From NCBI GenBank assembly GCA_050118535.1, contig JASFKR010000002.1, positions 11,652 through 75,651 on the forward strand: a stretch of DNA of 64,000 nt, read 5' to 3'. The notes under the pieces are model-generated. The model did no database searches. It was given only the letters and a program-made list of their open reading frames with translations, and was not told where the DNA came from. Positions 16,542-39,372 of the stretch are shown in pieces (position 1 is the stretch's first letter; each line of letters begins with the position of its first letter). Source of the stretch: Myxococcales bacterium (GTDB lineage: Bacteria > Myxococcota_A > Polyangia > Polyangiales > JAFGIB01). Position numbers and translations under genes: made by a program.

Positions 16542-16607
16542 CGGGCTTACGACCCCCATCCCCGGTCGACTGCGGTGCTGTACCCGCGTGCCGGGAAAGG
16601 AGCACCC

Positions 16608-17894
16608 GTGTCTCTTCGAGCCTTCCTCATCTTGATCCTGTGTCTGGCCCCGACCGCGGCCTGTGATTCCAGCTCCGACTCCGACGACCCCTCCGCGGGC
16701 GACGGGAGCGCCACGGGCGATGTGGCGGGGCCCGACGGCTCCACCAGCGAGGGCGGCGCCGCCGGTGGTGAGGACACCGGGGGCGGCGACGGCGGCGACA
16801 CGGGTGCGGCTGGCAGCAGTGGCGGCGATGGTGACGGCGCTGCGACCGGCGCGGGCGGAAGCAGCGCTTCGGGCACGGCGGGCAGCGGTGGCGACCCGGG
16901 CGCGTCCATCACCGTGCCGCTCGACGAGCTTCCGGGCGCGTTCGCGACGGCGGTGTGCGATGCGCTCGAGGACTGCATCGGTTCGTCGGCGCTGCGCGAG
17001 CTGATGCGCCGCGAGGACTGTGACGCGCGTCTGGGCGCCGAGCTCGAGGCCTCCGACTTCGCCTACCTGGGCATGGCCGTAGACGCCGGCGGCATCCTCT
17101 ACGATCCGACCAAGCTCGCCGCCTGCCAGGCGGGCATCCGCGAGATGGGCTGCAGCGTCCTGCGTGACAGCTTTCCCCAGCCCTGCGTGGACGTGCTCGT
17201 GGGTAATGTGCAGCCGGGCGAGGAGTGCGCGATCAGCGCCGAGTGCGCGGGCACTGCTTTCTGCGCGGGCGCCGACAGCTGCCCCAGCACGTGCACCGAG
17301 CTGCTGGAGGAAGGCGCCACGTGCGATGCCGACAGCCAGTGCGCCGATGGCCTGCGATGCGTGGTCGACGTCTGCGGGGCGCCCTCGGCAAACGGCGAGG
17401 ACTGTGGCGGTGACAGTGGCAAGGTCTGCGAGCTCGGGCTCAGCTGCAGCGGAGGCGGCGAGACCGAGGTCGGAAACTGCGTGCCCAACGCCCAGGTGCA
17501 GGTTGGCGACGCGGGCGACGTCTGCGAGCCAGGTGGCGACCTCTGCCAGGACGGTCTGTCCTGCGTCTTCGACGGCGCCACCGGTTTCGTGTGCGAGGGG
17601 ACCGTAGAGCGGGACGGTGCCTGCCATCTCGGCCTGCCCAGCCAGTGTCCGGCCGATCAGTACTGCGACACGACCGAAGTTACCGAGGAGAGCAATTGCG
17701 CCGACCTTCCGGGAGATGGCGAGGCCTGCGTGTTGAGCGGCCTGTGTGCGGGAGGCCACGCGTGCGTCGTCGAGGATGGCTCGCCCGTGTGCCGCGCCCT
17801 GCAAGACAACGGCGGAAGCTGCGGCAGCGCGGCCCAGTGTCGCAGCGGCTTCTGCGAGGGGGGCGAGTGCGTGCCTCCGCCCACATGTCTCTGA
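16608..17894 (+). CDS. Cys-rich repeat lipoprotein
   Basis: The GTG at 16608 follows AAAGGAG. The signal/lipobox reads SLRAFLILILCLAPTAAC, followed by a D/S/G linker. Repeated CxxxxxC...GLxC modules follow (e.g. CDADSQCADGLRC, CEPGGDLCQDGLSC, CGSAAQCRSGFC). Confidence 0.7.
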   Translation: MSLRAFLILILCLAPTAACDSSSDSDDPSAGDGSATGDVAGPDGSTSEGGAAGGEDTGGGDGGDTGAAGSSGGDGDGAATGAGGSSASGTAGSGGDPGASITVPLDELPGAFATAVCDALEDCIGSSALRELMRREDCDARLGAELEASDFAYLGMAVDAGGILYDPTKLAACQAGIREMGCSVLRDSFPQPCVDVLVGNVQPGEECAISAECAGTAFCAGADSCPSTCTELLEEGATCDADSQCADGLRCVVDVCGAPSANGEDCGGDSGKVCELGLSCSGGGETEVGNCVPNAQVQVGDAGDVCEPGGDLCQDGLSCVFDGATGFVCEGTVERDGACHLGLPSQCPADQYCDTTEVTEESNCADLPGDGEACVLSGLCAGGHACVVEDGSPVCRALQDNGGSCGSAAQCRSGFCEGGECVPPPTCL

Positions 17895-17920
17895 GTTAGA
17901 TTCGCGCGTAGCGCGTCCAG

Positions 17921-17961
17921 AGGCCCGCCTTCGAATCGGAGGCGGGCCTTTCGCTTTCTTG
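17921..17961 (+). terminator. Rho-independent terminator after the lipoprotein gene
   Basis: Perfect 10-bp stem aggcccgcct (17921-30) / aggcgggcct (17940-49) with a 9-nt loop, followed by ttcgctttcttg. Confidence 0.65.
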
Positions 17962-18031
17962 AAAAGCCGGTGCGAAAAAGTTGGCCAATCGATCACAGAT
18001 GGGACGGCCCGCCGCATTAAGTGAGTACAAC

Positions 18032-18075
18032 CCGTCGGCGACACGAACCGCGTTCCCCACGTGACTCGCCGACGG
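18032..18075. promoter_or_regulatory. 10-bp perfect inverted repeat in the leader/promoter region of the GG-peptide gene
   Basis: ccgtcggcga (18032-41) pairs with tcgccgacgg (18066-75) across a 24-nt spacer. It is followed by aactttttc and lies 64 nt upstream of the peptide ATG. Confidence 0.35.
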
Positions 18076-18138
18076 AACTTTTTCGGGTGGCCTGAGCGGT
18101 CACCAACCAGCAAGACCGAGCCACCAAGGAGCAATACG

Positions 18139-18399
18139 ATGAACGACTTCGAGATGATTGATGACGCGGCCCTCGACAACGTCACCGGCGGTTTGAGCCT
18201 CAGCTTCGGCAGCCTCAGCGTCGACGCGACCCTCGGCGACGGCCTCTCGGTGGAGAGCGACCTGGGCTCGCTGTCGGTGGAGAGCCCCATCACCATCGCC
18301 GAGAACGTCTTCAGCACGGCGACGGGCGCCATCAGCGACCTGCTGTCCGGCTTCGGCACCGCGCTGACGGACCTGGGCAACCTGTTCATGTTCTCCTGA
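18139..18399 (+). CDS. Double-glycine-leader precursor peptide (18-aa leader plus 68-aa acidic Ser/Leu/Gly-rich core)
   Basis: The ATG at 18139 lies 8 nt after AAGGAG (18125-30). The leader is MNDFEMIDDAALDNVTGG, with hydrophobic residues at -4, -7, -12 and -15 and GG at -2/-1. The gene sits directly upstream of a C39-peptidase ABC exporter. Track ORF 18061..18399 is the same frame with an implausible upstream GTG. Confidence 0.75.
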   Translation: MNDFEMIDDAALDNVTGGLSLSFGSLSVDATLGDGLSVESDLGSLSVESPITIAENVFSTATGAISDLLSGFGTALTDLGNLFMFS

Positions 18400-18407
18400 A
18401 TCCGACC

Positions 18408-18440
18408 GGCGGCGCCGCGGCTTTGACCGCGGCGCCCGCC
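18408..18440 (+). other. GC-rich hairpin immediately after the peptide stop codon
   Basis: ggcggcgccgcgg (18408-20), loop ctttga, then ccgcggcgcccgcc (18427-40). This gives a 13-bp stem with one bulged C. Confidence 0.6.
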
Positions 18441-18456
18441 TCTTGGACTCGAGGGT

Positions 18457-18493
18457 CAGGTACGGCAGTAGCGTACCTGGCCCTTTCTTTTTG
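18457..18493 (+). terminator. Rho-independent terminator between the peptide gene and the export genes
   Basis: Stem caggtacg (18457-64) / cgtacctg (18472-79) with loop gcagtag, followed by gccctttctttttg. Confidence 0.6.
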
Positions 18494-18530
18494 CCGGCGA
18501 CCATCCCGGTTGACTAGAATTGACGGATAC

Positions 18531-19445
18531 ATGAACGAGAGCCGTATCGTCGCGCTAGCCACCCTGCCCATGCTGGTCGGCGCCGTGTTGCTGATCGGGC
18601 TGCGGCGTCCCGACCCCGCGGTGCGGCACTCGGGCGGGCACGTGAAGCAGCGGGCGGCGTCCGATGATGGACCGGGCGGGGGCGGGGACGCGCAGGACGG
18701 ATACCTGGGTGTGATCGTGTCCGGGTACAGCGCCGACGTCGGCGTCGAGTTCGGCGGCAGCGTGGTAGAGGTCTGGGACAGCGTCGGCGCGCGCGTTTCC
18801 GAGGGCGACCGGCTGGTCAAGATCGATCCCCGCAGCGCCGGCAGCGACGTGAAGGTCGCCCGCGCCCAGCTGGCGCAGCAACGATCGGCGCTCGAGCGCG
18901 CTCGGGTCGAGCTCGCCGAGGCGCGCGACGTCCTCACGCGCCTGTCCGCCATGAAGGACGGGGTCTCGGAGCGCGCGCTGGTGGCTGCCCGCGCCCGCGA
19001 GCAGCGCGCGCTGGCCGCCGTCGAGGAAGCCGAGGCCGGCATCGGCATGCAGCAGGCACGACTGGGGCAGCAGGTGAGCCGCAGCGAAAAGCACGTCATC
19101 CGTGCACCCTTCGACGGCATCCTGGTGGCGCGCTTCGTCGACCCGGGCGATGTGGTGGTGCCCGGGCAGGTGGTGGTGCGCGTCATTACCGAGGATCACT
19201 ACGTGCGCTTCGCGGTTCCGACCGACGCCGCACGTCAGCTGTCGGAGGGCGCGCGCGTGCGCGTTCGGCTCGATGGGGCGGACCGGGAGCTGCACGGGCG
19301 TGTGACCGATGTGCAGCCCGAGCTCGACTCGGCGGCCCAGATGGTCTTCGTGCGCGCGCGGCTGGAGATGGCCGCCGGGCAGGCCGCCCGGGAGCCGATG
19401 GCAGGCAGCCGCGTTCGCGTGTTTCCGGCGGGGGAGGGCGATTGA
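18531..19445 (+). CDS. Membrane-fusion (periplasmic adaptor) protein, RND/MFP type
   Basis: I trimmed the track ORF to the ATG at 18531 (MNESRIVALATLPMLVGAVLLIGL, an N-terminal TM). It has a lipoyl-like strand (GDRLVKID), a long coiled-coil hairpin (ARAQLAQQRSALERARVELAEA...) and HVIRAPFDGILV...VDPGDVVVPGQ. Confidence 0.75.
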   Translation: MNESRIVALATLPMLVGAVLLIGLRRPDPAVRHSGGHVKQRAASDDGPGGGGDAQDGYLGVIVSGYSADVGVEFGGSVVEVWDSVGARVSEGDRLVKIDPRSAGSDVKVARAQLAQQRSALERARVELAEARDVLTRLSAMKDGVSERALVAARAREQRALAAVEEAEAGIGMQQARLGQQVSRSEKHVIRAPFDGILVARFVDPGDVVVPGQVVVRVITEDHYVRFAVPTDAARQLSEGARVRVRLDGADRELHGRVTDVQPELDSAAQMVFVRARLEMAAGQAAREPMAGSRVRVFPAGEGD

Positions 19446-20389
19446 AGGTGGCGGAGCAGTCCCTGTTTCGCAGCGAGGCCCTCGAGCACCACCGGCGCGG
19501 CGGGGCGCGCGGCGACGTCCTGCACCTGACGCCGCGCGCCATGTTCTGGACGCACTGGCTGCTGCTGCTCGCGCTCGCAGCCGCGGTCTACTACGCCTTT
19601 ACCGCCGAGATCGACGAGTACGCCACGGGGCCCGCGGTGGTGCGCATCGACGGCCTGCGCGAGCTCGCCGCCCAGCGGCCGGGAGTGGTCGCAAGCGTGT
19701 CCGTGGACCCGGGCCAGCGCGTGGCCGAGGGGCAGCTGCTGCTGCGCATGCACGCGGCGTCGGAGACCGCCGAGCTGGAGTCGGTCGAGAAGGAGCTCAG
19801 CGACCAGCTCGCCAAGCTGCTGCGCGATCCGGCGGATGCGACCGCCCGGGCCGCCATCGTTTCGCTGCGCTCGCGGCGGGACCTGGCTCGCGCCAACCTG
19901 GCCCGCCAGGAGGTCCGGGCGCCGGAGGCCGGCGTGGTGGGTGACGTGCGCGTCCGCCCGGGACAGCTGGTGGAGCCGGGCATGCCCGTGATCACGTTGA
20001 TGATCGGCGGTGGCGGTGCGCGCGTCACCGCGATGCTCCCGGGTCACCACCGCCCGCGGCTGTCGCCGGGCATGGACCTGCGCTTCGTGGCCGACGGCTT
20101 CGAGCGGGTACCGCAGATGCTGACCATCGAGCGCGTGGGCGACCAGATCGTCGGCGCCTCGGAGGCGGCGCGCTTTCTGGGGCGGGACCTGGCGGCATCG
20201 CTTCCGATGGCCTCCGGATCGGTGGTGCTGGTGCACGCGCGGCTCGATCGGCTCGAGTTCGAGAGCGATGATCAGGTCTATCGCTTCCATCACGGCATGC
20301 ATGGTCGCGCCGAGACCTCCGTGCGTCACGAGAGCCTGGCCTACACCTTCATCCCCGGTCTGAAGCAGGTCATCGACAATGTCCGCTGA
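19442..20389 (+). CDS. HlyD/CvaA-type bacteriocin secretion accessory protein
   Basis: The TTG start overlaps the upstream stop (TTGA). The N-terminus ...SLFRSEALEHHRRG matches the LFRxEALE opening of CvaA/LcnD-type accessory proteins. A TM segment reads FWTHWLLLLALAAAVYYAF. It also has EVRAPEAGVVGDVRVRPGQLVEPG. Confidence 0.8.
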   Translation: MKVAEQSLFRSEALEHHRRGGARGDVLHLTPRAMFWTHWLLLLALAAAVYYAFTAEIDEYATGPAVVRIDGLRELAAQRPGVVASVSVDPGQRVAEGQLLLRMHAASETAELESVEKELSDQLAKLLRDPADATARAAIVSLRSRRDLARANLARQEVRAPEAGVVGDVRVRPGQLVEPGMPVITLMIGGGGARVTAMLPGHHRPRLSPGMDLRFVADGFERVPQMLTIERVGDQIVGASEAARFLGRDLAASLPMASGSVVLVHARLDRLEFESDDQVYRFHHGMHGRAETSVRHESLAYTFIPGLKQVIDNVR

Positions 20390-22610
20390 CGAGGCGCCGA
20401 ACACGCCGTCGCAGCGCCGCGTTTCGCGCTTCGAGGCCTTCAAGCAGCTCACGCCCGGAGGCAAGGACGAGGTGCCGGTCATTCTGCAGCTCACGCCCAC
20501 CGACTGCGGCGCGGCCTGCCTGGCGATGACGCTCGAGCACCACGGCAAGAAGCTGCCGATGGAGGACGTGCGCAGCGCGGTGGGCTCCGGCAAGGCCGGG
20601 ATCAGCGCGCGGCAGATCCTGGAGGGTGCGCGCATCTTCGGCCTGCGTGCGCGCGGCGTGAAAGTCTCCCCCGAGAAGCTCGCATACCTGCCCGCCGGCA
20701 CCATCCTGCACTGGGAGATGAACCACTTCGTGGTGCTGGAGTCGGTCCGTGGCGACACCGTCCGCGTCGTGGATCCGGCGGTGGGGCATCGGCGCATCCC
20801 CATGGAAGACGTGGAGCGCATGTTCACCGGCGTGGCGCTCACGTTCGAGCCCGGGCCGCGCTTCGTGGCCGAGGACAAGCGGCCCAGGACGCGCATGGGG
20901 CGCTACCGCCGATGGATCTTCGGGATCAAGGGCTACTGGCCCCGCATCCTGATCGCATCGCTCTTCCTGCAGGCCATCGCGCTGGCCATGCCGGGTGTGA
21001 TGGGCGTGACCGTGGACAAGATCGTCCCGCGGCAGGACTACCACCTGCTGAGTCTGGTCGCCGCCGGCCTGCTGATGGTGCTGTCGCTGCACTTCCTGGC
21101 CACCTTCGTGCGGGGCCACCTGCTGCTTCACCTGCGCACCTACATCGACATGGAGATGACGCTCGAGTTTCTCGAGCACCTGCTGGATCTTCCCTACGCC
21201 TTCTACCAGCAGCGTTCGGTGGGCGACATCGTCATGCGTCTGGGCAGCGGCTCACAGATCCGCGAGCTGCTGACCTCGGGTGCCATGGCTGCCGTGCTCG
21301 ACGGCACGCTGGTGGTCCTCTACTTCGGCCTGCTGACGGCGGCGGCACCCAAGCTCGGGTTGATCGCGCTGGGGGTGGCCGTGGTGCAGGGGCTGCTGTT
21401 CTGGCGTGCCGGCAAGCGCAACGCCGAGCTGCAGGCCGAGCAGCTCGCCACCCAGGCCAAGCTCTCGGGTTTCCAGGTGGAGATGCTGGCGGGCATGGAG
21501 TCGGTCAAGTCGATGGGGGCCGAGCAGCGCATGGCGTCGCGCTGGTCGGAGCTGTTCGTCGACGTGCTCAACATCAGCCTGAGCAAGGGCCGGCTGATGG
21601 CCAGCTTCGGCTCGCTCGTGGGCGCCATCGCGTTCATCGGGCCCATCACGCTGGTGCTGATGGGTGCGCGAATGGTGCTCGACGGAGAGCTCTCGCTGGG
21701 CACCATGCTCGCCCTGTCGTCGCTCGGGGCGGGCTTCCTGGGGCCGGTCAACGCCCTCGTCAACACGGCGATGCAGCTCCAGCTCCTCAAGGGTTACATG
21801 GCGCGCATCGAGGACGTGCTCGACCACGACACCGAGCGCAACTACCGGGCCCAGGGACGCGCGCACGAGCTGCAGGGCGCCATCGAGCTCGACCGCGTGA
21901 GCTTCCGTTACGCGCAGGACGGCCCGCTGACGCTGGATGACATCAGCCTCGGGATCGCGCCGGGCGAGTTCCTGGCCATCGTGGGCGCGTCGGGCTCGGG
22001 CAAGTCCACGCTGGCGCGGCTGCTCGCGGGGCTTTACCGCCCCATGTCGGGCAGCATCGCCTACGACGGCATCGCCCTCGCGCAGTGGGACCCGCCCGAG
22101 CTCCGCAGGCAGCTGGGCATGGTCACGCAGGACACGCGGCTGTTCGCGGCCACCATCCGAGACAACATCGCCATGCTCGACCCGGAGGTGCCACTCGAGA
22201 AGGTGGAGGCCGCCGCGAGGAAGGCTCACATCCACGACGACATCGCGCCGCTGCCCATGGGCTACGACACCGTGCTGGCCGATGGCGGTGCCTCCCTCTC
22301 GGGCGGCCAGCGCCAGCGGCTCGCCCTGGCGCGGGCGCTCCTCGACGATCCCGCGGTGATGATCCTGGACGAGGCCACCAGTGCGCTCGACACCGTCACC
22401 GAGCGCCGCATCCAGGAGGAGCTGGCGCAAATGCGTTGCACGCGGGTGGTCATCGCGCATCGGCTGAGCACCGTCGCCTCGGCCGACCGCATCCTCGTGC
22501 TCGAGCGCGGCAAGGTGGTGGGGCTCGACACCCACGCCGGGCTGCTCGAGAGCTGTCCCGTCTACCAGGAGCTGGTGGGCGCCCAGTCGACACCCGGCGA
22601 GCCCGGGTGA
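20379..22610 (+). CDS. Peptidase-C39-domain ABC transporter (PCAT; bacteriocin/GG-peptide cleavage-export)
   Basis: The C39 catalytic signature reads QLTPTDCGAACLAM ... HWEMNHFVVL ... VVDPAVG. Six TM helices are followed by Walker A GASGSGKST, LSGGQRQR, Walker B ILDEATSALD and IAHRLST. Confidence 0.95.
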   Translation: MSADEAPNTPSQRRVSRFEAFKQLTPGGKDEVPVILQLTPTDCGAACLAMTLEHHGKKLPMEDVRSAVGSGKAGISARQILEGARIFGLRARGVKVSPEKLAYLPAGTILHWEMNHFVVLESVRGDTVRVVDPAVGHRRIPMEDVERMFTGVALTFEPGPRFVAEDKRPRTRMGRYRRWIFGIKGYWPRILIASLFLQAIALAMPGVMGVTVDKIVPRQDYHLLSLVAAGLLMVLSLHFLATFVRGHLLLHLRTYIDMEMTLEFLEHLLDLPYAFYQQRSVGDIVMRLGSGSQIRELLTSGAMAAVLDGTLVVLYFGLLTAAAPKLGLIALGVAVVQGLLFWRAGKRNAELQAEQLATQAKLSGFQVEMLAGMESVKSMGAEQRMASRWSELFVDVLNISLSKGRLMASFGSLVGAIAFIGPITLVLMGARMVLDGELSLGTMLALSSLGAGFLGPVNALVNTAMQLQLLKGYMARIEDVLDHDTERNYRAQGRAHELQGAIELDRVSFRYAQDGPLTLDDISLGIAPGEFLAIVGASGSGKSTLARLLAGLYRPMSGSIAYDGIALAQWDPPELRRQLGMVTQDTRLFAATIRDNIAMLDPEVPLEKVEAAARKAHIHDDIAPLPMGYDTVLADGGASLSGGQRQRLALARALLDDPAVMILDEATSALDTVTERRIQEELAQMRCTRVVIAHRLSTVASADRILVLERGKVVGLDTHAGLLESCPVYQELVGAQSTPGEPG

Positions 22611-23362: not shown

Positions 23363-23845
23363 ATGCCTCGCCCCAACCCGCGATGTCGCCGGCCCGTGTC
23401 CCTCGGATTGCTGCTGGCCCTGGTCCCGATGCTTCAGGCGGCGTGGGGCTGCGACGCCTTTGACGAGGCGCTGCTCGAGGACGCCCGCAACGGCGATATC
23501 GACGGCGCTGTGGTCATGGACGGCGGCGGGGAGCCCGGCGCCGACGCTGCCATGGACGGGGCGTTGGACGTATGCATGGCGATGGACGAGGCCTGCAACG
23601 GCGAGGATGACGACTGCGACGGGCGCGTCGACGAAGACACGCGGCGGGTGTGCGAGGAGATCGTGCTCAACGCCGACACCGGCTGTTTCGTCACGCGCGA
23701 CGGACCGCGCTGCGTACGCATCGCCTGCTACGAAGGCTTTGCCGATCTCGACGGCAACCCCGCCAACGGTTGTGAGCCAATCCCCTGCGAGGGGGACGCG
23801 TGCGATGACGCGGGTGCCGATGACGACGCGGGTGCTACACCCTGA
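23363..23845 (+). CDS. Lipoprotein with a MopE-like putative metal-binding motif
   Basis: The signal/lipobox reads ...SLGLLLALVPMLQAAWGC. The CNGEDDDCDGRVDED motif is typical of myxobacterial putative metal-binding proteins. The start could be 23363 (ATG) or 23321 (TTG). Confidence 0.7.
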   Translation: MPRPNPRCRRPVSLGLLLALVPMLQAAWGCDAFDEALLEDARNGDIDGAVVMDGGGEPGADAAMDGALDVCMAMDEACNGEDDDCDGRVDEDTRRVCEEIVLNADTGCFVTRDGPRCVRIACYEGFADLDGNPANGCEPIPCEGDACDDAGADDDAGATP

Positions 23846-24290
23846 CGGTGAGCACCGGGCAAGCGGAGAGGCGCACCACCCGCTCGGCGACGCTCCCGAG
23901 CAACAGGTGGTCCAGCCCCGTGCGACCGTGGGTGCCCATGACGATCAGGTCCACGCCGAGGTCCTGCGCGTGCTCTACGATGGACTGGGCGACCGGCCCC
24001 TGGATCAGACGTGTCGACAGCTCCAGGCCCTCGGAGTCGACCTGGCTGGATAGCTTGTCGAGGCGGCTCTGCAACTCGCTCTCCACCGCCTCGCCGAAGT
24101 CGTAGGCCTCGCCCGGCTCGCCGGCTTCCGTCGCGATGCCGGTGGGCACGTTGTAGAGCGGCATCTCGTAGACGTGCACCACGTGCAATGCGGCGCCCAG
24201 GGACTTGGCCATGTCGATGCCATACTGAAGCGACTTGTCGGAGCCGGGGGAGAAGTCCACCGGGCAGAGGATTCGCGAGATGTTCGGCAA
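23835..24290 (-). CDS. Universal stress protein (UspA family)
   Basis: The TTG start at 24290 lies 6 nt after GGAGA. The protein reads PNISRILCPVDFS...LIVMGTHGRTGLDHLLLGSVAERVVRLSACPVLTV. Confidence 0.85.
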   Translation of the reverse strand: MPNISRILCPVDFSPGSDKSLQYGIDMAKSLGAALHVVHVYEMPLYNVPTGIATEAGEPGEAYDFGEAVESELQSRLDKLSSQVDSEGLELSTRLIQGPVAQSIVEHAQDLGVDLIVMGTHGRTGLDHLLLGSVAERVVRLSACPVLTVRV

Positions 24291-24339: not shown

Positions 24340-24819
24340 TCAATGCGCGCCGGGAACCACCGCTTGCGAGGGCTCATCGTTGGCGTGCCCCGGCGACGCG
24401 GTGTCGAGCGCCCGGGACAACGCCTCCAGCGCGTTGGTCGTCGTGAACACGCCCAGGATGCGGCTGCCCTCGACGACCACGGCGGAGCCAAGCTTACGCG
24501 AAGCCATGTGCCGCGCCACATCCGCGATGGGGGTGTCGAGGCTGACACAATAGGGGACGCCCGTCATGGCCTGCTCCACGGTCAGATCCTTCAGCTCGGT
24601 GCGGTCCACGGCGTCGACCAGGGCGATGTCGCGCTCGCTGATCACGCCGACCAGGCGATCGCCGTCGACCACGGGTAAATGACGCACGCCGAGCTCATCC
24701 ATACGATGGGCGGCCGATTCCAGGGTCCGGTCCATCGAGATGGTGTGGGGGGCGGGTGCCATGCATTTCCCGATCGTGGTGGGGGGCACGGGGGGCTCGG
24801 GGGCGGTAGGGCCGTCCAT
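24340..24819 (-). CDS. CBS-domain pair protein
   Basis: Two CBS repeats are present: HLPVVDGDRLVGVISERDI and GSAVVVEGSRILGVFTTTNAL. Confidence 0.85.
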   Translation of the reverse strand: MDGPTAPEPPVPPTTIGKCMAPAPHTISMDRTLESAAHRMDELGVRHLPVVDGDRLVGVISERDIALVDAVDRTELKDLTVEQAMTGVPYCVSLDTPIADVARHMASRKLGSAVVVEGSRILGVFTTTNALEALSRALDTASPGHANDEPSQAVVPGAH

Positions 24820-24823: not shown

Positions 24824-25693
24824 CTAGCGCTCCTCCGCGGCGGCGTCTGCCCGCGTGGCCGCGTGGTCGCCGGTTTGCTCAGGGGCTGCGGTGGGGCGAG
24901 ACGGCGGCATCACATAGCCGTCCTGCTGTGCGATCCAGCGCAGGATGTCGAGGGACGCCACGACGCCCAGCGGCCGGCCGTCCGCCGCCGTGACCACGAT
25001 GCGGTGCACCCCCTCGTAGGACATGAGGGCCGCGGCTCGGCTCAGCGACGCGTCCCGCATCAAGGAAAAGACGTGATGGGTCATCACGTCGCGCACGGTG
25101 GCCGACTTGATGTGGTCGCGATCGAATCCGCCCAGGTCGACGGGGTAGTGGATGGCGCCCTGCAACTCCACGGCCGCTTCGCCCTCCGCGTCACCGGCCT
25201 CGTAGTAGCGCTGCAACAGGTCGGTCTTGCTCACCAGCCCGATCGCCCGCTGCCCGTCGTCGACGACGGGGACCGCGCTGATTCCGCGCGACAGGAAGAT
25301 GCGGGTCAGATCCTCGATGGGCGTCTCCGGGGTCACGCACTGCACGGGCGTGGTCATGACCTCCTCGAGCAGCGTTTCCCGCGCGGACCGGGGCTCCACG
25401 GCAGGGGTCGGCCGGGCTCGCCTGCGGTCACTCCCGGACTCGGTCGCCTCGGACGTGCCGGCGGCGGTGCTCCAGGTACAGCGCAGGAAAGTCTCGCGGT
25501 CGGTCTCGTCGACGCACAGGCCCCGGCAATGTTCGCAGCCGCGGCATTCCTTCAGGGCGACGGCTCGGGTCCGCCGTGGGCAGAACACGGCGAGCACGCG
25601 AGCGTCGTCGGTTCGCTCGCTGCGCACACGCCGAAAGGTCACCCTCAGCTGGCGCGCACTATCGGAGTCTGTCGTCACTGCGTGTGCTCCCAT
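24824..25693 (-). CDS. Cys-cluster (CxxCxxCxxxC) N-terminal domain fused to a CBS pair
   Basis: KECRGCEHCRGLC is followed by two CBS repeats (ISAVPVVDDGQRAIGLVSKTDL, VHRIVVTAADGRPLGVVASLDIL). Alternative starts are the GTG at 25678 (8 nt after GGGAG) or the GTG at 25723. Confidence 0.75.
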   Translation of the reverse strand: MGAHAVTTDSDSARQLRVTFRRVRSERTDDARVLAVFCPRRTRAVALKECRGCEHCRGLCVDETDRETFLRCTWSTAAGTSEATESGSDRRRARPTPAVEPRSARETLLEEVMTTPVQCVTPETPIEDLTRIFLSRGISAVPVVDDGQRAIGLVSKTDLLQRYYEAGDAEGEAAVELQGAIHYPVDLGGFDRDHIKSATVRDVMTHHVFSLMRDASLSRAAALMSYEGVHRIVVTAADGRPLGVVASLDILRWIAQQDGYVMPPSRPTAAPEQTGDHAATRADAAAEER

Positions 25694-25744
25694 CCCGGAC
25701 GGGCGTGCCCGAGGCCCTGCCACCCGCCACCGTTGTCACGAGGT

Positions 25745-25760
25745 TGCAAGGGGCGTGCCG
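25745..25760 (-). promoter_or_regulatory. Candidate sigma-54 (-24/-12) promoter reading toward the CBS/USP genes
   Basis: The minus strand reads CGGCACG-CCCC-TTGCA, against the consensus TGGCACG-N4-TTGCW. GG and GC are correctly spaced. It lies about 50-80 nt upstream of the candidate starts. Confidence 0.5.
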
Positions 25761-25910
25761 GTCGCAGGGATGCCGTGACGGCCCGCTCTCCGAGGCGTTT
25801 CGCCACGCGCGAGGCCGGGTGCCGCGCATAAATTGCGCCGGTGGCTTGCGTGCGCGCAAAGCGATCGCCGGAGGGGCGGCGGATCCGCAGAAAGCCACGG
25901 AATTCGGGGT

Positions 25911-25926
25911 TGGCACGGGCCGTGCT
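25911..25926 (+). promoter_or_regulatory. Candidate sigma-54 (-24/-12) promoter upstream of the RpoH-like sigma gene
   Basis: TGGCACG-GGCC-GTGCT has one mismatch to TGGCACG-N4-TTGCW. It is followed by the RBS GAGGAGGG (25941-48) and the GTG at 25956. Confidence 0.55.
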
Positions 25927-25955
25927 CCAGCTCCAAGGGCGAGGAGGGATTGCCC

Positions 25956-26777
25956 GTGAAGCGAGACAATCGTGAGCTGGGACTGGAGTCCATGTTGAAG
26001 GCGGCCAAGGCGGCACCGATGCTTTCGGCGGAGGAGGAGCTGCGGCTGGCCAAGAAGGCGGCGAAGGGTTGCAGTCGATCCTTCGAGCTGCTTCTCAAGT
26101 CGCATCTGCGCCTGGTGGTCACCATTGCGCACGAGTTTTCCGCCTACGGCTTGCCCCTCGACGAGCTGGTCAGCGAGGGGTTGCTCGGCCTGGTGGAGGC
26201 GGCCCGCCGCTTCGACCACGGACGCGGCGTGCGTCTGGCGGCCTACGCGGCCTGGTGGATCCGCGCATACATGCGGCGCTACACCATTTCCAACCGCCGC
26301 ATCGTCCGCACGCCGTCGTCGCGCAGCGGGCGCAAGCTACTGGCGAACCTGCGCCGGACTCAGCGTGAGCTCGCGCAGCAGAAGGGCGAGCGCCCCGACA
26401 CGGAGACCGTCGCCAAGACGCTCGGCGTGGAAGTGCGGGACGTGGAGGAGATGGAGGCGGCCCTCAGCGGCCGCGACATTCCCTGCGGCTACGACCCGGA
26501 GGGACGCGCCGTGGATGTGGCCTCCGGCGGGCCCTCTCCCGAGGTCGAGGTGGCCGAAGCCGAGGAGCGGGCCTGGTCCATGAACGCCGTCAAGGGCGCC
26601 ATGCAGACCCTCTCCGAACGCGAGCAGCACATCCTGCAGATGCGCTATCTGACCGACGAGACCAACAGTCTGGCCTCGATCGGGCGCGGCATGGGCCTGT
26701 CTCGCGAGCGGGTACGCCAGCTGGAGCACCAGGCCCAGGCCAAAATGCGTAACGCCATCATGGCGTCGGTGGCCTGA
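25956..26777 (+). CDS. Alternative sigma factor, sigma-70 family, RpoH-like
   Basis: Region 2 reads LVVTIAHEFSAYGLPLDELVSEGLLGLVEAARRFD...AAYAAWWIRAYM. An RpoH-box-like segment reads GRKLLANLRR. Region 4 reads SLASIGRGMGLSRERVRQLEHQA. Confidence 0.85.
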   Translation: MKRDNRELGLESMLKAAKAAPMLSAEEELRLAKKAAKGCSRSFELLLKSHLRLVVTIAHEFSAYGLPLDELVSEGLLGLVEAARRFDHGRGVRLAAYAAWWIRAYMRRYTISNRRIVRTPSSRSGRKLLANLRRTQRELAQQKGERPDTETVAKTLGVEVRDVEEMEAALSGRDIPCGYDPEGRAVDVASGGPSPEVEVAEAEERAWSMNAVKGAMQTLSEREQHILQMRYLTDETNSLASIGRGMGLSRERVRQLEHQAQAKMRNAIMASVA

Positions 26778-26854: not shown

Positions 26855-28252
26855 ATGGGAGAAGCGCACACCCAGGCCCGGCAGGGCCGCGTGCTCGTCG
26901 TCGATGACGAGGCCAACGCCCGCGAGGCGCTGGTGGAGCTACTCGCCGACGAGGGCTACGAGACCGCCTCCGCCGCCGATGGCAGGCGGGCGCTGGAGGC
27001 CATGCATGACTTCGCGCCCCAGGTCGTCCTCACCGACCTGAAGATGCCCGGTCTCGATGGCATCGGCCTGCTGCAGAAGGCGCGCGAGCGCTACCCCCAC
27101 GTGGCCTTCGTGGTGATGACCGCCTTCGGCAGCATCGACACCGCCGTTGAAGCGATCAAGTCCGGCGCCGAGAACTACCTGACCAAGCCCGTCGATCTCG
27201 ATGCGCTCAGTGCCCTCGTGGCACGGGCGATGGAGAAGGCGAAGCTCTCGGAGGAGACCGCAAGCCTGCGCGAGCGGCTCGAGGCTCGCTTCACCCTGGG
27301 CAACATCGTGGGGGACCACCCCTCGATGCAGCGCCTCGCCAAGCTCGTTCACCAGGTGGCGCGCAGCCGCGCCTCGGTCCTCATTCACGGCGAGACCGGC
27401 ACTGGCAAGGAGCTGATCGCGGCTGCGATTCACCAGAGCTCGCCAGTGAGTCACGGGCCATTCGTTCGCCTCAATTGCGCCGCGCTGGCGGAGAACCTGC
27501 TCGAGTCCGAGCTCTTCGGTCACGAGAAGGGGGCGTTCACCGGTGCTGTCGGGCGCCGACAGGGCCGCTTCGAGCAGGCCGACGAGGGGACCCTCTTCCT
27601 GGACGAGGTCAGCGAGATCCCCGCGGCGTTGCAGGTGAAGCTGCTGCGCTTCCTGCAGGAGAAGGAGTTCGAGCGGGTCGGGGGCAACGAGACCATCCGG
27701 GTGCAGGTGCGCATCGTGGCCGCCACCAACAGGGATCTGGCCGAGCTCGTGGAAGCGGGCGAGTTTCGGGAAGATCTCTACTACCGCCTCAACGTGGTCC
27801 GGCTCGACGTGCCGCCGCTTCGGGCGCGGCGCAGCGATATCCCGCTGCTGGCTCACCACTTCATGCGCGAGCACGCCCGGGAGAACGGCTTCGACATCAA
27901 GGGCTTCACGCGGGAGGCACTGGACCTGCTGATGGCCTACCCCTGGCCCGGCAACGTGCGTGAGCTCGAGAACGCCATCGAGCGCGCCGTGGTCATGACC
28001 ACCGACGAAACCATCGGCGTCGAGCAGCTCCCCGAGCTGAGCACCACGCGGTCCGGCGATGACCTGCGCCTGCTGGTGCCCGGGGTGACCCTGGCCGAGC
28101 TCGAGCGCACCGCCATTCAACAGGCCCTGGACGCCTGCGCCGGCTCGACCAAGCAGGCCGCCGAGATGCTGGGCATCTCCCGGCGCAAGATCCAGTATCG
28201 TCTCAAGGAGTGGGAAGAGGACCCACCCCACGAGAGCAGCGAGAGCAGCTGA
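26855..28252 (+). CDS. Sigma-54-dependent response regulator (NtrC family: REC + AAA+ + Fis HTH)
   Basis: REC domain with VLTDLKMPGLDG; Walker A GETGTGKE; intact sigma-54 contact loop ESELFGHEKGAFTGA; C-terminal HTH TKQAAEMLGISRRKIQYRL. Confidence 0.95.
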   Translation: MGEAHTQARQGRVLVVDDEANAREALVELLADEGYETASAADGRRALEAMHDFAPQVVLTDLKMPGLDGIGLLQKARERYPHVAFVVMTAFGSIDTAVEAIKSGAENYLTKPVDLDALSALVARAMEKAKLSEETASLRERLEARFTLGNIVGDHPSMQRLAKLVHQVARSRASVLIHGETGTGKELIAAAIHQSSPVSHGPFVRLNCAALAENLLESELFGHEKGAFTGAVGRRQGRFEQADEGTLFLDEVSEIPAALQVKLLRFLQEKEFERVGGNETIRVQVRIVAATNRDLAELVEAGEFREDLYYRLNVVRLDVPPLRARRSDIPLLAHHFMREHARENGFDIKGFTREALDLLMAYPWPGNVRELENAIERAVVMTTDETIGVEQLPELSTTRSGDDLRLLVPGVTLAELERTAIQQALDACAGSTKQAAEMLGISRRKIQYRLKEWEEDPPHESSESS

Positions 28253-28258: not shown

Positions 28259-28705
28259 ATGTCCCAACTCAAGAAGATTCTGGTCGCGACCGACTTTTCC
28301 GACGTCTCCGAGCGGGCCCTCGCGCAAGCGGTTTCGCTGGCCCGGACGCTCGGCGCGAGCATCGACGTGGTCCACGTCTACGACGTGCCCGCCTTCAACC
28401 TCCCACTCGAGGGCGCCGTCATGTCGACCGCGGCCCACGAAGCAGAGCTGTCGGACCAGGCCCAGGCCTCCCTCGACGCGGTCATCGAGCGGCACGCCCA
28501 GGACGGGGTGGCCATGCACGGGACCCTGCGGCGCGGCGTGCCCTATCAGGAGATTGCGGCCTTCGCGGAGGCCGAGGGCGCGGATCTGATCGTCATCGGC
28601 ACCCACGGTCGTCAGGGTGCGTCCCACGTGCTGCTCGGCAGCGTGGCCGAGCGTGTCGTGCGCATCGCGAGTTGTCCGGTCATGACCGTCCCCGTCCGGG
28701 ACTGA
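28259..28705 (+). CDS. Universal stress protein (UspA family)
   Basis: The protein reads KKILVATDFSDVSERAL...LIVIGTHGRQGASHVLLGSVAERVVRIASCPVMTV. Confidence 0.9.
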   Translation: MSQLKKILVATDFSDVSERALAQAVSLARTLGASIDVVHVYDVPAFNLPLEGAVMSTAAHEAELSDQAQASLDAVIERHAQDGVAMHGTLRRGVPYQEIAAFAEAEGADLIVIGTHGRQGASHVLLGSVAERVVRIASCPVMTVPVRD

Positions 28706-31535: not shown

Positions 31536-33035
31536 TTAGCCGGCGCGCTCGAGGGTGACCCGCACCCGGGTGCCGACGCCGGGCTCGGAGCTGACCTGGA
31601 TGCTTCCGCCATGGCGATCGACGATGCGCTTGACGATGGTGAGGCCCAGCCCGCTGCCCGCTTCCTTCGAGGTGACGAAGGGCACGAACAGTCGATCGGC
31701 CACCTCCGGCGGGATGCCCGGACCGTCGTCTTCCACGCTCAGCTCCACGCGAGCGCTGCTGGTCGGCTCGCAGGCCAGCTTGATGCGCCCGTGTCCGCGC
31801 GCCCGCATGGCATCGAGGGCGTTCATGATCAGGTTGACCAGCACCTGCTTGAGCATCGAGCGGTCGCCGCGCACCGCGAGCTCCTCGTCGCTGATCCGAC
31901 GCGTCAAGCGGACCCCGGCGGCGCTCGCGGCGGGCTCCTCGAGCGCGATCACCTCGTCGACCAGCGCGCACAGGCGCACGTCCTTGAGCTCCAGCTTGCG
32001 TGGTCGAGCCAGGTTGAGGAAGTCGTTGAGCAGGTTGGTCAGCCGGTCGAGCTCCTCGCGAACGATGCGTGCGCGGCCCTCGATTCGTTCACGCGCGTCG
32101 GCGTCCTGCAGCTTGCGCGCCCCGCGGCTGAGCAACTCGAGCTGCAGGGCCGCTGCGTTGAGGGGGTTGCGTATCTCGTGCGCGAGTCCCGCGGTCAGGG
32201 TCGCGATGGAGGCCATGGCCTCCGCCTCCGCAGCGCGCCGCTCCAGGTCGAGCTGATCGGTGAGATCCTCGCCCACGGCCAGCAGAGTGGGCGCGCGCAC
32301 ATCGGCGGCCGTGGAGCGGGTGATGTTCCAGCGCACCGTGCGCGTGGTGCCCTCGCGCGTGCGCAAGGGCAGCTCGATGCCGGTGACCGCCTGGTCGTTG
32401 CGGGCCTTTTCCAGGGCCTCGTCCAGTCTTTTCCGGGCGGCGTCCGATCCCAGCAGCTGGATCAGCGGTCGGCCGAGCACCTCGTGGGGTGGCCAGCCGG
32501 TGCAGGCGGCGGCCGAGCGGTTCCACATCCGGACCTCGCCGGCTTCATCGAGGGCCACGATATACGCCTCCGAGCTGTCGACGACGTTGCGGTGGAGGGC
32601 CTCGGAGCGGGAGAGCTCGCGCTCCAGCCGGGTCCGGTCGCGACGCAACTGCACCTGGCCCAGGGCGCGCTCCCCCAGCGACAGCAGCTCTGCCGGGTCG
32701 AAGGGCTTCTGCACGTAGGCGAAGGCCGCCTGACCGACGGCGGCGATCGCCGTATCGAGCGTGGCGTTGGCGGTCATCAGAATGATCTCGGCGTCCTCGC
32801 AGCGCGCCTGGAGTCGGGCGGCGATGTCCACCCCGCTCTCGTTGGGTAGGCGGATGTCGACCACGGCCAGGTCGAATGGGCGCTGCTCGGCGGCGGCGCA
32901 GGCCCCATCGCCGTCGCGCTCCACGTGGGTCGAGTATCCGGCGCCAGCGAAGAGCTCGGCCACGTTCTCGGCCAGATCGGCGTTGTCGTCGACCACGAGC
33001 ACGTGCTGGGGGCCAGGCGGTACGCTTCCTGCCAT
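31536..33035 (-). CDS. Hybrid sensor: N-terminal receiver + PAS + histidine kinase
   Basis: ATG at 33035 (MAGSVPPGPQHVLVVDDN). REC domain with FDLAVVDIRLP; PAS region ...YIVALDEAGEVRMWNRSAAACTGW; H-box HEIRNPLN; ATPase G-boxes DDGPGI and GSGLGL. Confidence 0.9.
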   Translation of the reverse strand: MAGSVPPGPQHVLVVDDNADLAENVAELFAGAGYSTHVERDGDGACAAAEQRPFDLAVVDIRLPNESGVDIAARLQARCEDAEIILMTANATLDTAIAAVGQAAFAYVQKPFDPAELLSLGERALGQVQLRRDRTRLERELSRSEALHRNVVDSSEAYIVALDEAGEVRMWNRSAAACTGWPPHEVLGRPLIQLLGSDAARKRLDEALEKARNDQAVTGIELPLRTREGTTRTVRWNITRSTAADVRAPTLLAVGEDLTDQLDLERRAAEAEAMASIATLTAGLAHEIRNPLNAAALQLELLSRGARKLQDADARERIEGRARIVREELDRLTNLLNDFLNLARPRKLELKDVRLCALVDEVIALEEPAASAAGVRLTRRISDEELAVRGDRSMLKQVLVNLIMNALDAMRARGHGRIKLACEPTSSARVELSVEDDGPGIPPEVADRLFVPFVTSKEAGSGLGLTIVKRIVDRHGGSIQVSSEPGVGTRVRVTLERAG

Positions 33036-33100
33036 CCGCCTATCAAAGCACACCGGAGGCCGGCGCGGCAGCACCCTTTCACGGCCCTTGCAGCCCGGTG

Positions 33101-33112
33101 CCCACCGGTGGG
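33101..33112. promoter_or_regulatory. Perfect 12-bp palindrome in the 94-bp divergent intergenic region between the two sensor kinase genes
   Basis: CCCACCGGTGGG read directly. It overlaps a second inverted repeat, CCGGTG-cc-CACCGG. Confidence 0.35.
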
Positions 33113-33129
33113 ATTCTCGGCGTGCAGGC

Positions 33130-34287
33130 ATGGACGAAGAGCTCTTCGACGAGATGAAGCGCTACGTGGGCTTCGGGGGCGACGACGAGGCGCTTCTGCG
33201 CGATGCGGGACCGCTACTCGAGCCCCATTTCGCACGCGTGGTGGACGACTTCTACGGGCGCGTCGAGCGCCACCCGGGGGCGCTGGCGGTGATCCGGGAG
33301 GGGCAGGCGCAGGTGGATCGCCTCAAGAAGACGCTGATCCGCTGGCTTCGGGAGTTCTTCGAGGGGCCGTGGGATCAGGCCTACTTCGAGCACCGCGAGC
33401 GCATCGGACGCATGCACGTCCGCATCCAGCTCCCGCAGCAGTACAACTTCACCGCCATGAACGTGATTCGCGGCCATCTCACGGACCTGGTCGCACGGCT
33501 GACCCCCGACTCGTCCCTGGCGGCGCGCAGGGTCCGCGCGATCGATCGGCTGATGGATCTGGAGCTGGCGATCGTGCTCCACACCTACCGCGAGGATTAC
33601 GACTCCCAGCTGCAGCGGACCGAGCGGCTCGCCACCTTCGGCCAGATGACCTCGACCATCGGGCACGAGCTGCGCAACCCGCTGGGGGTGATCGAGTCGT
33701 CGGTCTACCTGCTGCGCCGCCGCGTGGGCGAGGACCCGGCGGTGGTGCGGCACCTGGACAAGATCCAGGGCCAGGTGGCTCGCTCCAACCGCATCATCGG
33801 CAGCATGCTCGACATCGTGCGCGACAGGCCGCCCAACCGCGGGCGGGTGCTACCCGTCGTGGCTGCCGATCGTGCGGTGGCCGACGTGCTCGAGCGCCGC
33901 GGCTTCGGCGTCGAGCTGGTGGCCGAGGCGAAGGTCGCCCCCGTGCTCGTCGACCCGCAGCAGCTCCACCAGGTGCTGGTGAACCTGCTGGACAACGCCG
34001 TGGACGCCATCGGCGGGGAAGGGCGCGTCCGCGTGCGCGTCGGCGCGGCGGGCGCAAGCCGCGTGGCGCTGGTGGTGAGCGACTCCGGACCCGGCATCCA
34101 CCCCGACGTCCGTGCGCGGCTCTTCGAGCCCCTGGTCACCACCAAGGACGCGGGGGTGGGGCTGGGCCTGGCACTGTGCCGCAAGCTGGTGGATGCGGCT
34201 GGCGGGACGCTCGACGTGGTGTCCCCTGGGCAGGACGATCTCCCCGGCGCGGTCTTCCGGGTGACGCTGGAGCGGGCGCCCGAGTAG
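33130..34287 (+). CDS. Globin-coupled sensor histidine kinase
   Basis: ATG at 33130. The N-terminal sensor-globin pattern reads VVDDFYGRVERHP...RLKKTLIRWL...HRERIGRMHVRIQLPQQYNFTAM, with a distal Tyr and a proximal His candidate. H-box HELRNPLG, then DSGPGI and GVGLGL follow. Confidence 0.8.
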   Translation: MDEELFDEMKRYVGFGGDDEALLRDAGPLLEPHFARVVDDFYGRVERHPGALAVIREGQAQVDRLKKTLIRWLREFFEGPWDQAYFEHRERIGRMHVRIQLPQQYNFTAMNVIRGHLTDLVARLTPDSSLAARRVRAIDRLMDLELAIVLHTYREDYDSQLQRTERLATFGQMTSTIGHELRNPLGVIESSVYLLRRRVGEDPAVVRHLDKIQGQVARSNRIIGSMLDIVRDRPPNRGRVLPVVAADRAVADVLERRGFGVELVAEAKVAPVLVDPQQLHQVLVNLLDNAVDAIGGEGRVRVRVGAAGASRVALVVSDSGPGIHPDVRARLFEPLVTTKDAGVGLGLALCRKLVDAAGGTLDVVSPGQDDLPGAVFRVTLERAPE

Positions 34288-34372
34288 AGCCATCGCGCGA
34301 TTCCGTGCGAGCCGACCGGCATCCTGGCCCGGAGGGTGGCAAACACCGTGCGGGCGGTTACGTCCGCATCAG

Positions 34373-34786
34373 ATGACCGAAGCCCGGGACGACACCGTCG
34401 GCGCGTGGATGACGCCGTGCCCCGTGACCGTCGCCTTCGACGCCAGTCTGGCGGAGGCGGCGGAGCTGATGGGAGAGCATGCCGTGCGGCATCTGCCCGT
34501 GGTCCGGGATGGGCACGCGGTGGGCGTCCTGTCGGATCGGGACATCGCGGCGGTGGAGAGCCTGCCCATCCAGGGGGATCGGGAGGTGCGCGTGGCGGAG
34601 GCGATGACGCCGGTGCCCTACGCCGTGCCCGCCTCCATGGCCCTGTCGCGCGTGGCCCGGATGATGGCTCGGCAGCACTACGGCTGCGCCGTGGTCACCG
34701 GCGCGGACGACGACCGGGTGCTCGGGGTCTTCACGGTGACCGACGCGCTTCGGGCCCTGGCCGAGGTGGCCGTGGGCAGGCGCTGA
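34373..34786 (+). CDS. CBS-domain pair protein
   Basis: Two CBS repeats are present: VRHLPVVRDGHAVGVLSDRDI and GCAVVTGADDDRVLGVFTVTDAL. Confidence 0.85.
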   Translation: MTEARDDTVGAWMTPCPVTVAFDASLAEAAELMGEHAVRHLPVVRDGHAVGVLSDRDIAAVESLPIQGDREVRVAEAMTPVPYAVPASMALSRVARMMARQHYGCAVVTGADDDRVLGVFTVTDALRALAEVAVGRR

Positions 34787-34819
34787 GCCCGGCTCGGCGA
34801 GTCGGCAGCCGGCGCGGGC

Positions 34820-35542
34820 TCACATGGTTTCGAGGCCGGCGCGGTCGACCAGGGCCACGCCCTCGGGGGTCTTTTCGACCAGCCCCTGCTTGCCGAAGTC
34901 GCGCATCACCCGGCAGACCGATTCGTGGCGGATGGACAGCAGGGCAGCGAGGTCGCGCTGCAGGAACTCGGCGGGGATGATCGTGGTCTGCTCGTCGCCG
35001 GGCCGCAGGGTGTCGGACAGGGTGCAGAGCAGTGCCGCCACCTTGGCGGCCGCGCCCGAGCGCCCGCGGGCGTCGGCCAACCGCTCCATGCGGCTGATGG
35101 CTTCGCTGTCGAGCTGATGGACCTGCACCGCCGTGGGGCCGCCTTCGTTCAGGCCCCGCTCGATGGTCGCGTCGTCGCACAGGCAAACCAGGGCGCGCGT
35201 GACGGCGTAGCCCGATACGCTGCTCTCTGCGGCGCTCGACGAGTCGAGCGGGAAGCAGCACCCCGGTCCGACCGCGTCGATTGCGGTGGTGCGGCCGGCG
35301 GCGTCGGTGCGCTGCCGGATCAGGTAGCCTCGGCGGACGATCGCGAATCCGTAGCGGCCGAGCCAGGAGGCGGGCAGGTCGGAGCGCGCCTCCACGGCCA
35401 GGGAATCAAAACCGCAGGCCGCCGAGCCTTCTCCGAGCAGGCCTTCCAGCACGTTCCGACCCAGCGCCGGACAACCGACGCAATGTTGCGATGAGGTGTG
35501 CTTGTGAAGAACTCGACCGGCTTCGCTGCTGTTGATGTCCAC
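34820..35542 (-). CDS. Crp/Fnr-family transcriptional regulator with N-terminal Cys residues
   Basis: The GTG at 35542 lies 8 nt after GGGAGG. The C-terminal HTH reads QRDLAALLSIRHESVCRVMRDFGKQGLV. The N-terminus carries QHCVGCPALG plus further Cys (AACGF, GPGCCF). Confidence 0.7.
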   Translation of the reverse strand: MDINSSEAGRVLHKHTSSQHCVGCPALGRNVLEGLLGEGSAACGFDSLAVEARSDLPASWLGRYGFAIVRRGYLIRQRTDAAGRTTAIDAVGPGCCFPLDSSSAAESSVSGYAVTRALVCLCDDATIERGLNEGGPTAVQVHQLDSEAISRMERLADARGRSGAAAKVAALLCTLSDTLRPGDEQTTIIPAEFLQRDLAALLSIRHESVCRVMRDFGKQGLVEKTPEGVALVDRAGLETM

Positions 35543-35579
35543 GGCGTGCACCTCCCACTGGTGTGAGATCAGGTAGACA

Positions 35580-39338: not shown

Positions 39339-39372
39339 TGGGATCTCTCCTGTTCGTGTCAGCGCATACTGC

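Follow-up and report, generated by a model that had tools for sequence, protein, structure and literature searches.

Comparative evidence for a probable bidirectional, sigma-54-dependent control region of NmpR type beside an RpoH-like sigma factor gene in an uncultured myxobacterium

A 64,000-nucleotide stretch of Myxococcales DNA (contig JASFKR010000002.1, positions 11,652 to 75,651; hereafter the window, with a G+C content of about 70%) contains a divergent intergenic region in which two -24/-12 elements stand back to back, one facing a gene for an RpoH-like sigma factor and the other a predicted operon for CBS-pair proteins and a universal stress protein (USP). Our computational analysis indicates that this locus is very likely a bidirectional, sigma-54-dependent control region of the type bound by NmpR, the NtrC-like activator of the NmpRSTU oxygen-sensing system of Myxococcus xanthus. 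By analogy with that system, the region is probably induced by low oxygen and self-activating. Both -24/-12 elements were found where a preliminary description of this DNA had placed them: P-plus (TGGCACGGGCCGTGCT, 25911–25926, plus strand), which ends 29 nt ahead of the GTG start codon of the sigma gene at 25956, and P-minus (CGGCACGCCCCTTGCA, 25760–25745, minus strand), which faces the CBS-CBS-USP operon. The two elements are 166 bp apart, and two dyad sites, S1 (GCGCATAAATTGCGC, 25824–25838) and S2 (GCGCAAAGCGATCGC, 25854–25868), lie between them. The preliminary description did not recognise the NmpRSTU system; genes for NmpS-like and NmpU-like kinases are located in the same window.

In M. 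xanthus, the protoglobin kinase NmpU works in the presence of oxygen and holds the hybrid kinase NmpS inactive by phosphorylating it, and when oxygen is limiting, NmpS phosphorylates NmpR (PMC6211767, PMC11841059). The NmpR site GCGCA-N5-TGCGC was defined by electrophoretic mobility shift assay and lacZ fusions, and NmpR-bound promoters have two such sites, usually with a gap of 14–15 nt, together with a sigma-54 site that is required (PMC11841059). The targets of NmpR are a USP gene, cbb3 oxidase, hemN-hemerythrin, nmpUTS and its own operon, which begins with a gene for a CBS protein (PMC11841059). The window shows the same arrangement. S1 reads GCGCA-TAAAT-TGCGC, with no mismatch to the NmpR consensus, and S1 and S2 are 30 bp apart from centre to centre, leaving a 15-nt gap, upstream of a sigma-54 site. 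Measured to the GG of P-plus, the centre of S1 is at 81 bp and that of S2 at 51 bp; measured to the GG of P-minus, they are at 72 and 102 bp, so that S1 is the site nearer P-minus and farther from P-plus, and the centre of S2 is upstream of the P-plus -24 element. The activator gene (26855–28252, plus strand) belongs to the predicted operon behind P-plus, as is the case for an NmpR-regulated operon, and its product has the Pfam domains REC, sigma-54 interaction (AAA+, with GAFTGA) and HTH_8; the preliminary description was correct in placing an activator with an intact GAFTGA loop after the sigma gene.

The distinctiveness of the dyad pair was evaluated using a strict criterion, namely two matches to GCGCA-N5-TGCGC with no more than two mismatches in total and 28–32 bp apart. 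S1 and S2 form the sole such pair in the 64 kb, compared with 0.05 expected from simulations and 0 in 628 kb of control loci. A looser search allowing up to five mismatches in total returned 24 pairs in the window and was uninformative, and the strict criterion with its controls was used instead. When a dyad matrix was built from other loci only, leaving the window out, S1 was the top match in the whole window, and the dyad at 38656/38657 was second. The latter, GCGCCAAACATGCGC (38657–38671, one mismatch), and a perfect dyad, GCGCACGTCGTGCGC (41768–41782), are single and intragenic and probably occur by chance. The M. xanthus sites, reconstructed here from mutagenesis primers, read GCGCAATGCCTGCGC and GCGCAAAGCTTGCGC with 14 nt between them, and the first 9 nt of the latter reconstruction are the same as those of S2. 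The activator was compared with MXAN_4240 over primer-derived peptides only, EFSPAVVLTDVRMP against DFAPQVVLTDLKMP and ATFVMMTAFASVETA against VAFVVMTAFGSIDTA. The earlier proposal that enhancer sites for the REC-AAA+ activator lie between the promoters is supported by these dyads, which are conserved and equal to the published NmpR site. One of the two repeats named for it is S1; the other, TTGCG-TGCG-CGCAA, was mis-framed, and only its right part overlaps S2, in the left half of that site.

Conservation was examined by searching a genome collection with the sigma protein, which yielded 11 loci at 56–80% identity as well as 69 paralogous RpoH-like sigma loci at 33–39%. The 12 orthologous sigma loci (window included) and seven further activator loci made up 19 related loci; for the activator, the best 120 matches were all to metagenome-assembled genome (MAG) relatives at 68% identity or more. 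A relaxed -24/-12 pattern is present just upstream of all 12 orthologous sigma genes, compared with only 1 of the 69 paralogous loci, and the P-plus sequence TGGCAC-N5-GTGCT or a close variant was detected in 19 of 19 related loci. In every one of the 15 activator-linked loci, P-plus is accompanied by two dyads 29–32 bp apart. An alignment of eight intergenic regions, with a mean identity of 41%, has conserved blocks only at P-minus (TGCAA..GTGCCG), S1 (CGCA-N5-TGC), S2 (CGCAGA) and P-plus (TGGCAC-N5-GTGCT), and the spacers inside both promoters vary across loci whereas the GG and GC are constant. Over the 15 loci, the S2 centre is mostly 50–52, 60–62 or 70–74 bp away from the -24 GG, in steps of about one helical turn, which suggests a face-of-helix constraint on these loci, phylogenetically related and not independent as they are. 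The co-location, orientation and conservation of the elements are far beyond chance.

The gene behind P-plus is less constant than the promoter. It encodes the RpoH-like sigma factor in the window and in 11 other loci (L001–L005, L007, L009 and L081–L084), a CBS-hemerythrin protein resembling the situation in M. xanthus in L085 and L086, and the activator itself in L087. As the first gene varies while the promoter and dyads stay with the activator, the cassette belongs to the autoregulatory loop of the activator, and these comparisons indicate that the sigma gene was recruited into the cassette in one lineage. We tentatively propose, at slightly less than even confidence, that an NmpU-NmpS-NmpR relay captured an RpoH-like sigma factor in a Sandaracinaceae/Polyangiales lineage and thereby gave rise to a two-tier low-oxygen cascade reaching beyond the direct targets. 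The locus would represent two undescribed variations on the known NmpR/sigma-54 system: the autoregulated operon contains an RpoH-like sigma gene, and the enhancer serves both directions.

The sigma gene (25956–26777, plus strand), preceded by the ribosome-binding site GAGGAGGGA, encodes 273 aa with Pfam regions 1.2, 2, 3 and 4. The best NCBIfam matches are RpoH models, about 60 bits ahead of RpoS, and their scores of 213.4, 212.8 and 208.4 bits do not reach the curated thresholds of 241, 323 and 315, so the protein is RpoH-like and not demonstrably RpoH. The earlier assignment holds to that extent, in the ranking of the models and the group-3-type region content. Four copies of the sigma gene are not followed by the activator (L006 at 4736, L008 at 459, L010 at 1826 and L011 at 4945). 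They keep the -24/-12 element, and no NmpR dyad pair was found at them; sigma-54 dependence therefore appears to be a property of this sigma family itself. This suggests that other enhancer-binding proteins may control the copies not linked to the activator. L006 and L005 come from the same MAG, which thus has two such sigma genes in one genome. The comparative analysis supports the sigma-54 to alternative-sigma arrangement put forward in the preliminary description.

The oxygen link comes from two kinase genes located 3–6 kb downstream of the activator operon, with an Mla transporter operon between. One encodes an NmpS-like hybrid kinase with REC, PAS, HisKA and HATPase domains (31536–33035, minus strand), and the other an NmpU-like globin-coupled histidine kinase with Protoglobin, HisKA and HATPase domains (33130–34287, plus strand). 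The globin domain matches that of Anaeromyxobacter AfGcHK (PDB 5OHE) with E = 7e-41, including the proximal-His motif RIGRMHVRI; the H96A primers imply the identical stretch in M. xanthus NmpU (a reconstruction). The activator is linked to both kinases in the window as well as in four contigs with activator homologues at 69–79% identity (L081–L084). Additional genes on some activator-homologue contigs encode a 240-aa receiver-only protein, USPs, HSP20, CBS-hemerythrin and cbb3 oxidase. By analogy, the globin kinase is presumed to be the oxygen sensor and the hybrid kinase the direct kinase of the activator, the role known for NmpS (PMC6211767).

On this basis, the region may work as follows. 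With oxygen present, the globin kinase would keep the hybrid kinase off, and as oxygen falls the hybrid kinase would phosphorylate the activator, both steps being modelled on M. xanthus. The phosphorylated activator would oligomerise on the S1 and S2 dimer-binding dyads, loop to the RNA polymerase-sigma-54 closed complexes on both sides and open them by ATP hydrolysis. P-plus, with a predicted transcription start near 25937, would then express the RpoH-like sigma factor, the activator (positive autoregulation) and a USP, and P-minus, with a predicted start near 25735, the Cys-rich CBS protein, the second CBS protein and another USP. The RpoH-like sigma factor would subsequently turn on a second, indirect tier of genes.

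Several observations weigh against this reading. S2 has two mismatches to the consensus, in its right half. The promoters also depart from the consensus, P-plus with G for T at -14 and P-minus with C at -26. In 7 of the 15 activator-linked loci, P-minus is missing or not recognisable. The putative orthology of the activator to MXAN_4240 draws on site identity and neighbourhood rather than on a full-sequence comparison or a tree. Neither rpoN nor a gene for NmpT, the double-receiver phospho-sink, is found in the 64-kb window; NmpT could be encoded elsewhere in the genome. A receiver-only gene beside the kinases is likewise absent from the window and L081, and one of 240–242 aa is present in L082–L084. 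In contrast to the M. xanthus nmpU promoter, the 95-bp intergenic region between the kinase genes contains neither dyads nor a -24/-12 site with GG; the candidate CTTTCACGGCCCTTGCA in it (33076–33092) scores well in the core columns, but it was rejected as a sigma-54 promoter since it lacks the GG.

Weight-matrix scanning by itself does not set the two elements apart from background. Each element has one mismatch among the 11 specified positions of TGGCAC-N5-TTGCW, with GG and GC intact and 10 nt apart. At up to one mismatch, this pattern occurs five times in the 64 kb, compared with 1.28 expected, and only P-plus and P-minus are intergenic. The other three matches (7625–7640, 48549–48564 and 48681–48696, all minus strand) are within coding open reading frames, located in a Ser/Thr kinase gene and antisense within alanine racemase, and are attributed to chance or regarded as non-productive; sigma-54 binding inside genes is known in E. 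coli. At up to two mismatches, the pattern is under-represented (15 matches, compared with 23.8 expected). We also built a sigma-54 weight matrix from 42 intergenic-sense E. coli sites identified by chromatin immunoprecipitation sequencing (Table 1 of PMC4591121). Of approximately 128,000 window positions, P-minus ranks first and P-plus second; the two scores lie at 12.4 and 12.8 bits. However, a 64-kb stretch would be expected to contain about two matches scoring 12.2 bits or more (Markov simulations gave 1.94, and 628 kb of control myxobacterial DNA gave 2.24), and both elements score within the lower quartile of the 42 true E. coli sites. The label "near-consensus" that had been given to both elements is thus overstated. 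Because the matrix score is not above background, consensus and matrix scanning were rejected as decisive, and conservation was relied on instead. A minus-strand reading of S1, CGGCGCAATTTATGCG, was considered as a third sigma-54 site and ruled out, as the orthologous S1 sites lack the GG.

The alternative that survives best, though we regard it as unlikely, accepts the sites as real and disputes the signal: the globin kinase would be linked by coincidence, or the signal passed along the relay would be redox, nitric oxide or energy, and the sigma factor would have a general stress or heat-shock role. The 3–6 kb and the Mla transporter operon that separate the kinases from the activator operon in the window are in line with it, as are the missing NmpT and the PAS domain of the hybrid kinase, which could accept another input; the Cys-rich CBS protein, the CBS-hemerythrin protein, the rubrerythrin and the nearby Fur-family gene would fit redox, nitric oxide or peroxide equally. 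On the other hand, the activator is adjacent or close to the NmpS-like and globin-kinase genes in five differently arranged genomes (the window and L081–L084), the globin kinase shares its heme pocket motif with AfGcHK and NmpU, and the M. xanthus system is hypoxia-induced, as seen with the mxan_4236 promoter (PMC11841059).

A second alternative, to which we give a slightly lower probability, is that P-plus works alone, the minus element being a non-productive sigma-54 site or an accident of the lineage, and that another promoter drives the CBS-CBS-USP operon. P-minus (CGGCAY-N5-TTGCA) is kept in only 8 of the 15 loci (the window, L001–L004, L007, L009 and L081), all with a divergent CBS/USP operon, and L005 lacks it despite a similar divergent gene set; the order USP, CBS, CBS divergent from sigma, activator, USP is present in L001–L005, L007, L009 and L081. 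Many E. coli sigma-54 binding sites are without known productivity (PMC4591121), and in the M. xanthus divergent region just the mxan_4236 side is described as NmpR/sigma-54-driven. P-minus therefore appears to be confined to a subclade, and its function is supported less firmly than that of P-plus. Against P-plus acting alone, the GG and GC are held while the spacer varies in the eight loci, P-minus is always directed at the CBS/USP operon, at a distance of 50–107 bp from the centre of S1, and the validated targets of NmpR in M. xanthus include CBS and USP genes (PMC11841059). A scan of the region for sigma-70-type promoters found none, which is weak evidence, as the scan is poorly suited to this phylum.

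It is highly improbable that both -24/-12 look-alikes arose by chance in 70% G+C DNA and that the dyads bind another regulator, TetR-family or Crp-like, at sigma-70-type promoters: matrix matches of this strength do recur by chance, GCGC-rich dyads are common at loose thresholds and a TetR gene is located nearby in the window, L001, L081 and L082, but the conservation in 19 of 19 loci against 1 of 69 controls, a dyad sequence and spacing identical to an experimentally defined enhancer-binding-protein site, the uniqueness of the strict pair in the window and the fact that the module tracks the activator gene, not the TetR gene, through rearrangements all contradict it.

The remaining genes of the two predicted operons were mapped as follows. 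On the plus strand, a Usp gene (28259–28705, identified by Pfam) is probably part of the activator operon because it starts only 6 nt past the activator stop codon. On the minus strand, the first gene behind P-minus (24824–25678) encodes a CBS-pair protein whose N-terminal segment is Cys-rich and conserved, and is followed by a second CBS-pair protein (24340–24819) and, as the last gene, a Usp (23835–24290) with a TTG start at 24290 after the ribosome-binding site GGAGA. Pfam agrees with the earlier identification of these three genes. The start of the first CBS gene is most likely the GTG at 25678, which follows GGAG and at which the ortholog alignments begin, and not the one at 25723. The intergenic distance of 232 bp reported previously is valid for the longest CBS open reading frame, from GTG 25723, but becomes 277 bp with the likelier start. 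A terminator scan gave a single terminator-like hairpin, inside the CBS gene, and no Rfam family was found over 25500–26100.

The N-terminus of the first CBS protein (25478–25582, minus strand) shows the Cys pattern C-x11-C-x2-C-x2-C-x3-C-x11-C, which is kept in six orthologues and is covered by no Pfam domain. The core of this pattern has the ferredoxin-type spacing CX2CX2CX3C, and the segment may form a redox-sensing Fe-S or metal module joined to the CBS pair. Beside the kinases, a further CBS-pair protein (34265–34786) and a Crp-family regulator (34820–35812) are encoded, extending an oxygen-signalling cluster over 31536–35812. Just past this cluster, 36863–39810 (minus strand) contains a redox and oxidative-stress run of genes for a DUF3501 protein, an Fe-S/CCG-domain protein, rubrerythrin and a Fur-family regulator. 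Unrelated to the promoter region, a gene for a Dickkopf_N-like Cys-rich protein lies upstream of a Peptidase_C39 ABC exporter of bacteriocin type at 16542–22610; this arrangement is syntenic in L081, where membrane-fusion proteins are included.

Two of the related contigs contain further arrangements of this kind. In L083, two dyads 30 bp apart, CTCGCATCGGATGCACG and GGCGCAACGCTTGCGCC, form a second pair between divergent USP genes at 18381–18500, with TGGCACGGCGCGTGAA on the minus strand, and may be another bidirectional NmpR-type region. In L084, a sigma-54-like sequence, CGGCACGACCGTTGCG (within 13606–13874), points at an nmpU-nmpT-nmpS-like operon, and two NmpR-like dyads are just upstream of divergent USP genes. 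The L084 arrangement is like the NmpR-regulated nmpU promoter of M. xanthus and unlike the window.

These results would extend the NmpR circuit, whose recent characterisation is confined to M. xanthus, to uncultured Polyangia-type myxobacteria, with the NmpR recognition site and two-site spacing conserved over the 15 activator-linked loci examined. They also illustrate how such a circuit may be rewired: the promoter-enhancer cassette stays with the activator, and the leading gene is swapped (CBS-hemerythrin, RpoH-like sigma or none). If the proposed reading is true, a sigma factor inside the autoregulatory loop turns a small direct regulon into a hierarchical one, which provides a testable handle on the roles of RpoH-like sigma factors in myxobacteria. 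The layout of two promoters sharing an enhancer would be a compact natural part for oxygen-responsive bidirectional expression.

Among known systems, M. xanthus NmpRSTU is the closest, with the same activator architecture, DNA site and two-site spacing upstream of a sigma-54 site, which is required in M. xanthus. Its nmpR operon is positively autoregulated, and the activator gene of the window likewise belongs to the operon behind the dyads and P-plus. In M. xanthus, NmpR targets CBS and USP genes; in the window, USP genes lie in both promoter arms and CBS genes behind P-minus. The two systems also share an activator linked to a REC-HisKA hybrid kinase and a protoglobin kinase. The window differs in that the first gene of the activator operon encodes an RpoH-like sigma factor, whereas three papers on NmpR name no sigma gene for M. 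xanthus, either in the nmpR operon or in the regulon. It also differs in having the CBS genes in a divergent operon with its own sigma-54 promoter sharing S1 and S2, and in lacking both an NmpT gene and NmpR sites upstream of the kinase genes. The organism, moreover, is not a Myxococcus but a Sandaracinaceae/Polyangiales-like MAG, and the closest relatives of the window are Myxococcota MAGs labelled Sandaracinaceae, Polyangiales or Myxococcales.

Back-to-back -24/-12 promoters also occur in E. coli at zraP-zraSR and hycA-hypA. In these pairs the activator sites lie between the promoters, and one zra arm encodes the activator and is thus autoregulatory. They belong to another activator family and respond to other signals (zinc or envelope stress, and formate), and no sigma gene is present in either arm. 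The distances between the promoters, 154 bp for zraP/zraS and 128 bp for hycA/hypA (PMC4591121), compare with 166 bp in the window. E. coli rpoH has a sigma-54 site, CTGGCACAGTTGTTGCT, confirmed by chromatin immunoprecipitation (PMC4591121). Given the zraP/zraS, hycA/hypA and rpoH cases, neither the layout nor a link from sigma-54 to RpoH is unprecedented in principle.

Cascades from sigma-54 to an alternative sigma factor include Borrelia Rrp2-RpoN-RpoS and the flagellar FlrA/FleQ-sigma-54 to FliA pathway. These cascades and E. coli rpoH P6 resemble the window in that the gene for an alternative sigma factor of the sigma-70 family is directly behind a -24/-12 promoter. In the window, by contrast, the sigma gene and the gene for its own activator are in one predicted self-activating operon, and the input is apparently an oxygen-sensing phosphorelay. 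Rrp2 has been reported to act without a defined enhancer, whereas the window has clear enhancer dyads. The DosR regulon of Mycobacterium tuberculosis, in which low-oxygen sensing by heme kinases induces USP and CBS-pair proteins, has been compared with the NmpR system (PMC11841059). With its NarL-type regulator and sigma-70-type promoters, DosR is a functional analogy only, not homologous to the window at the level of promoter or activator.

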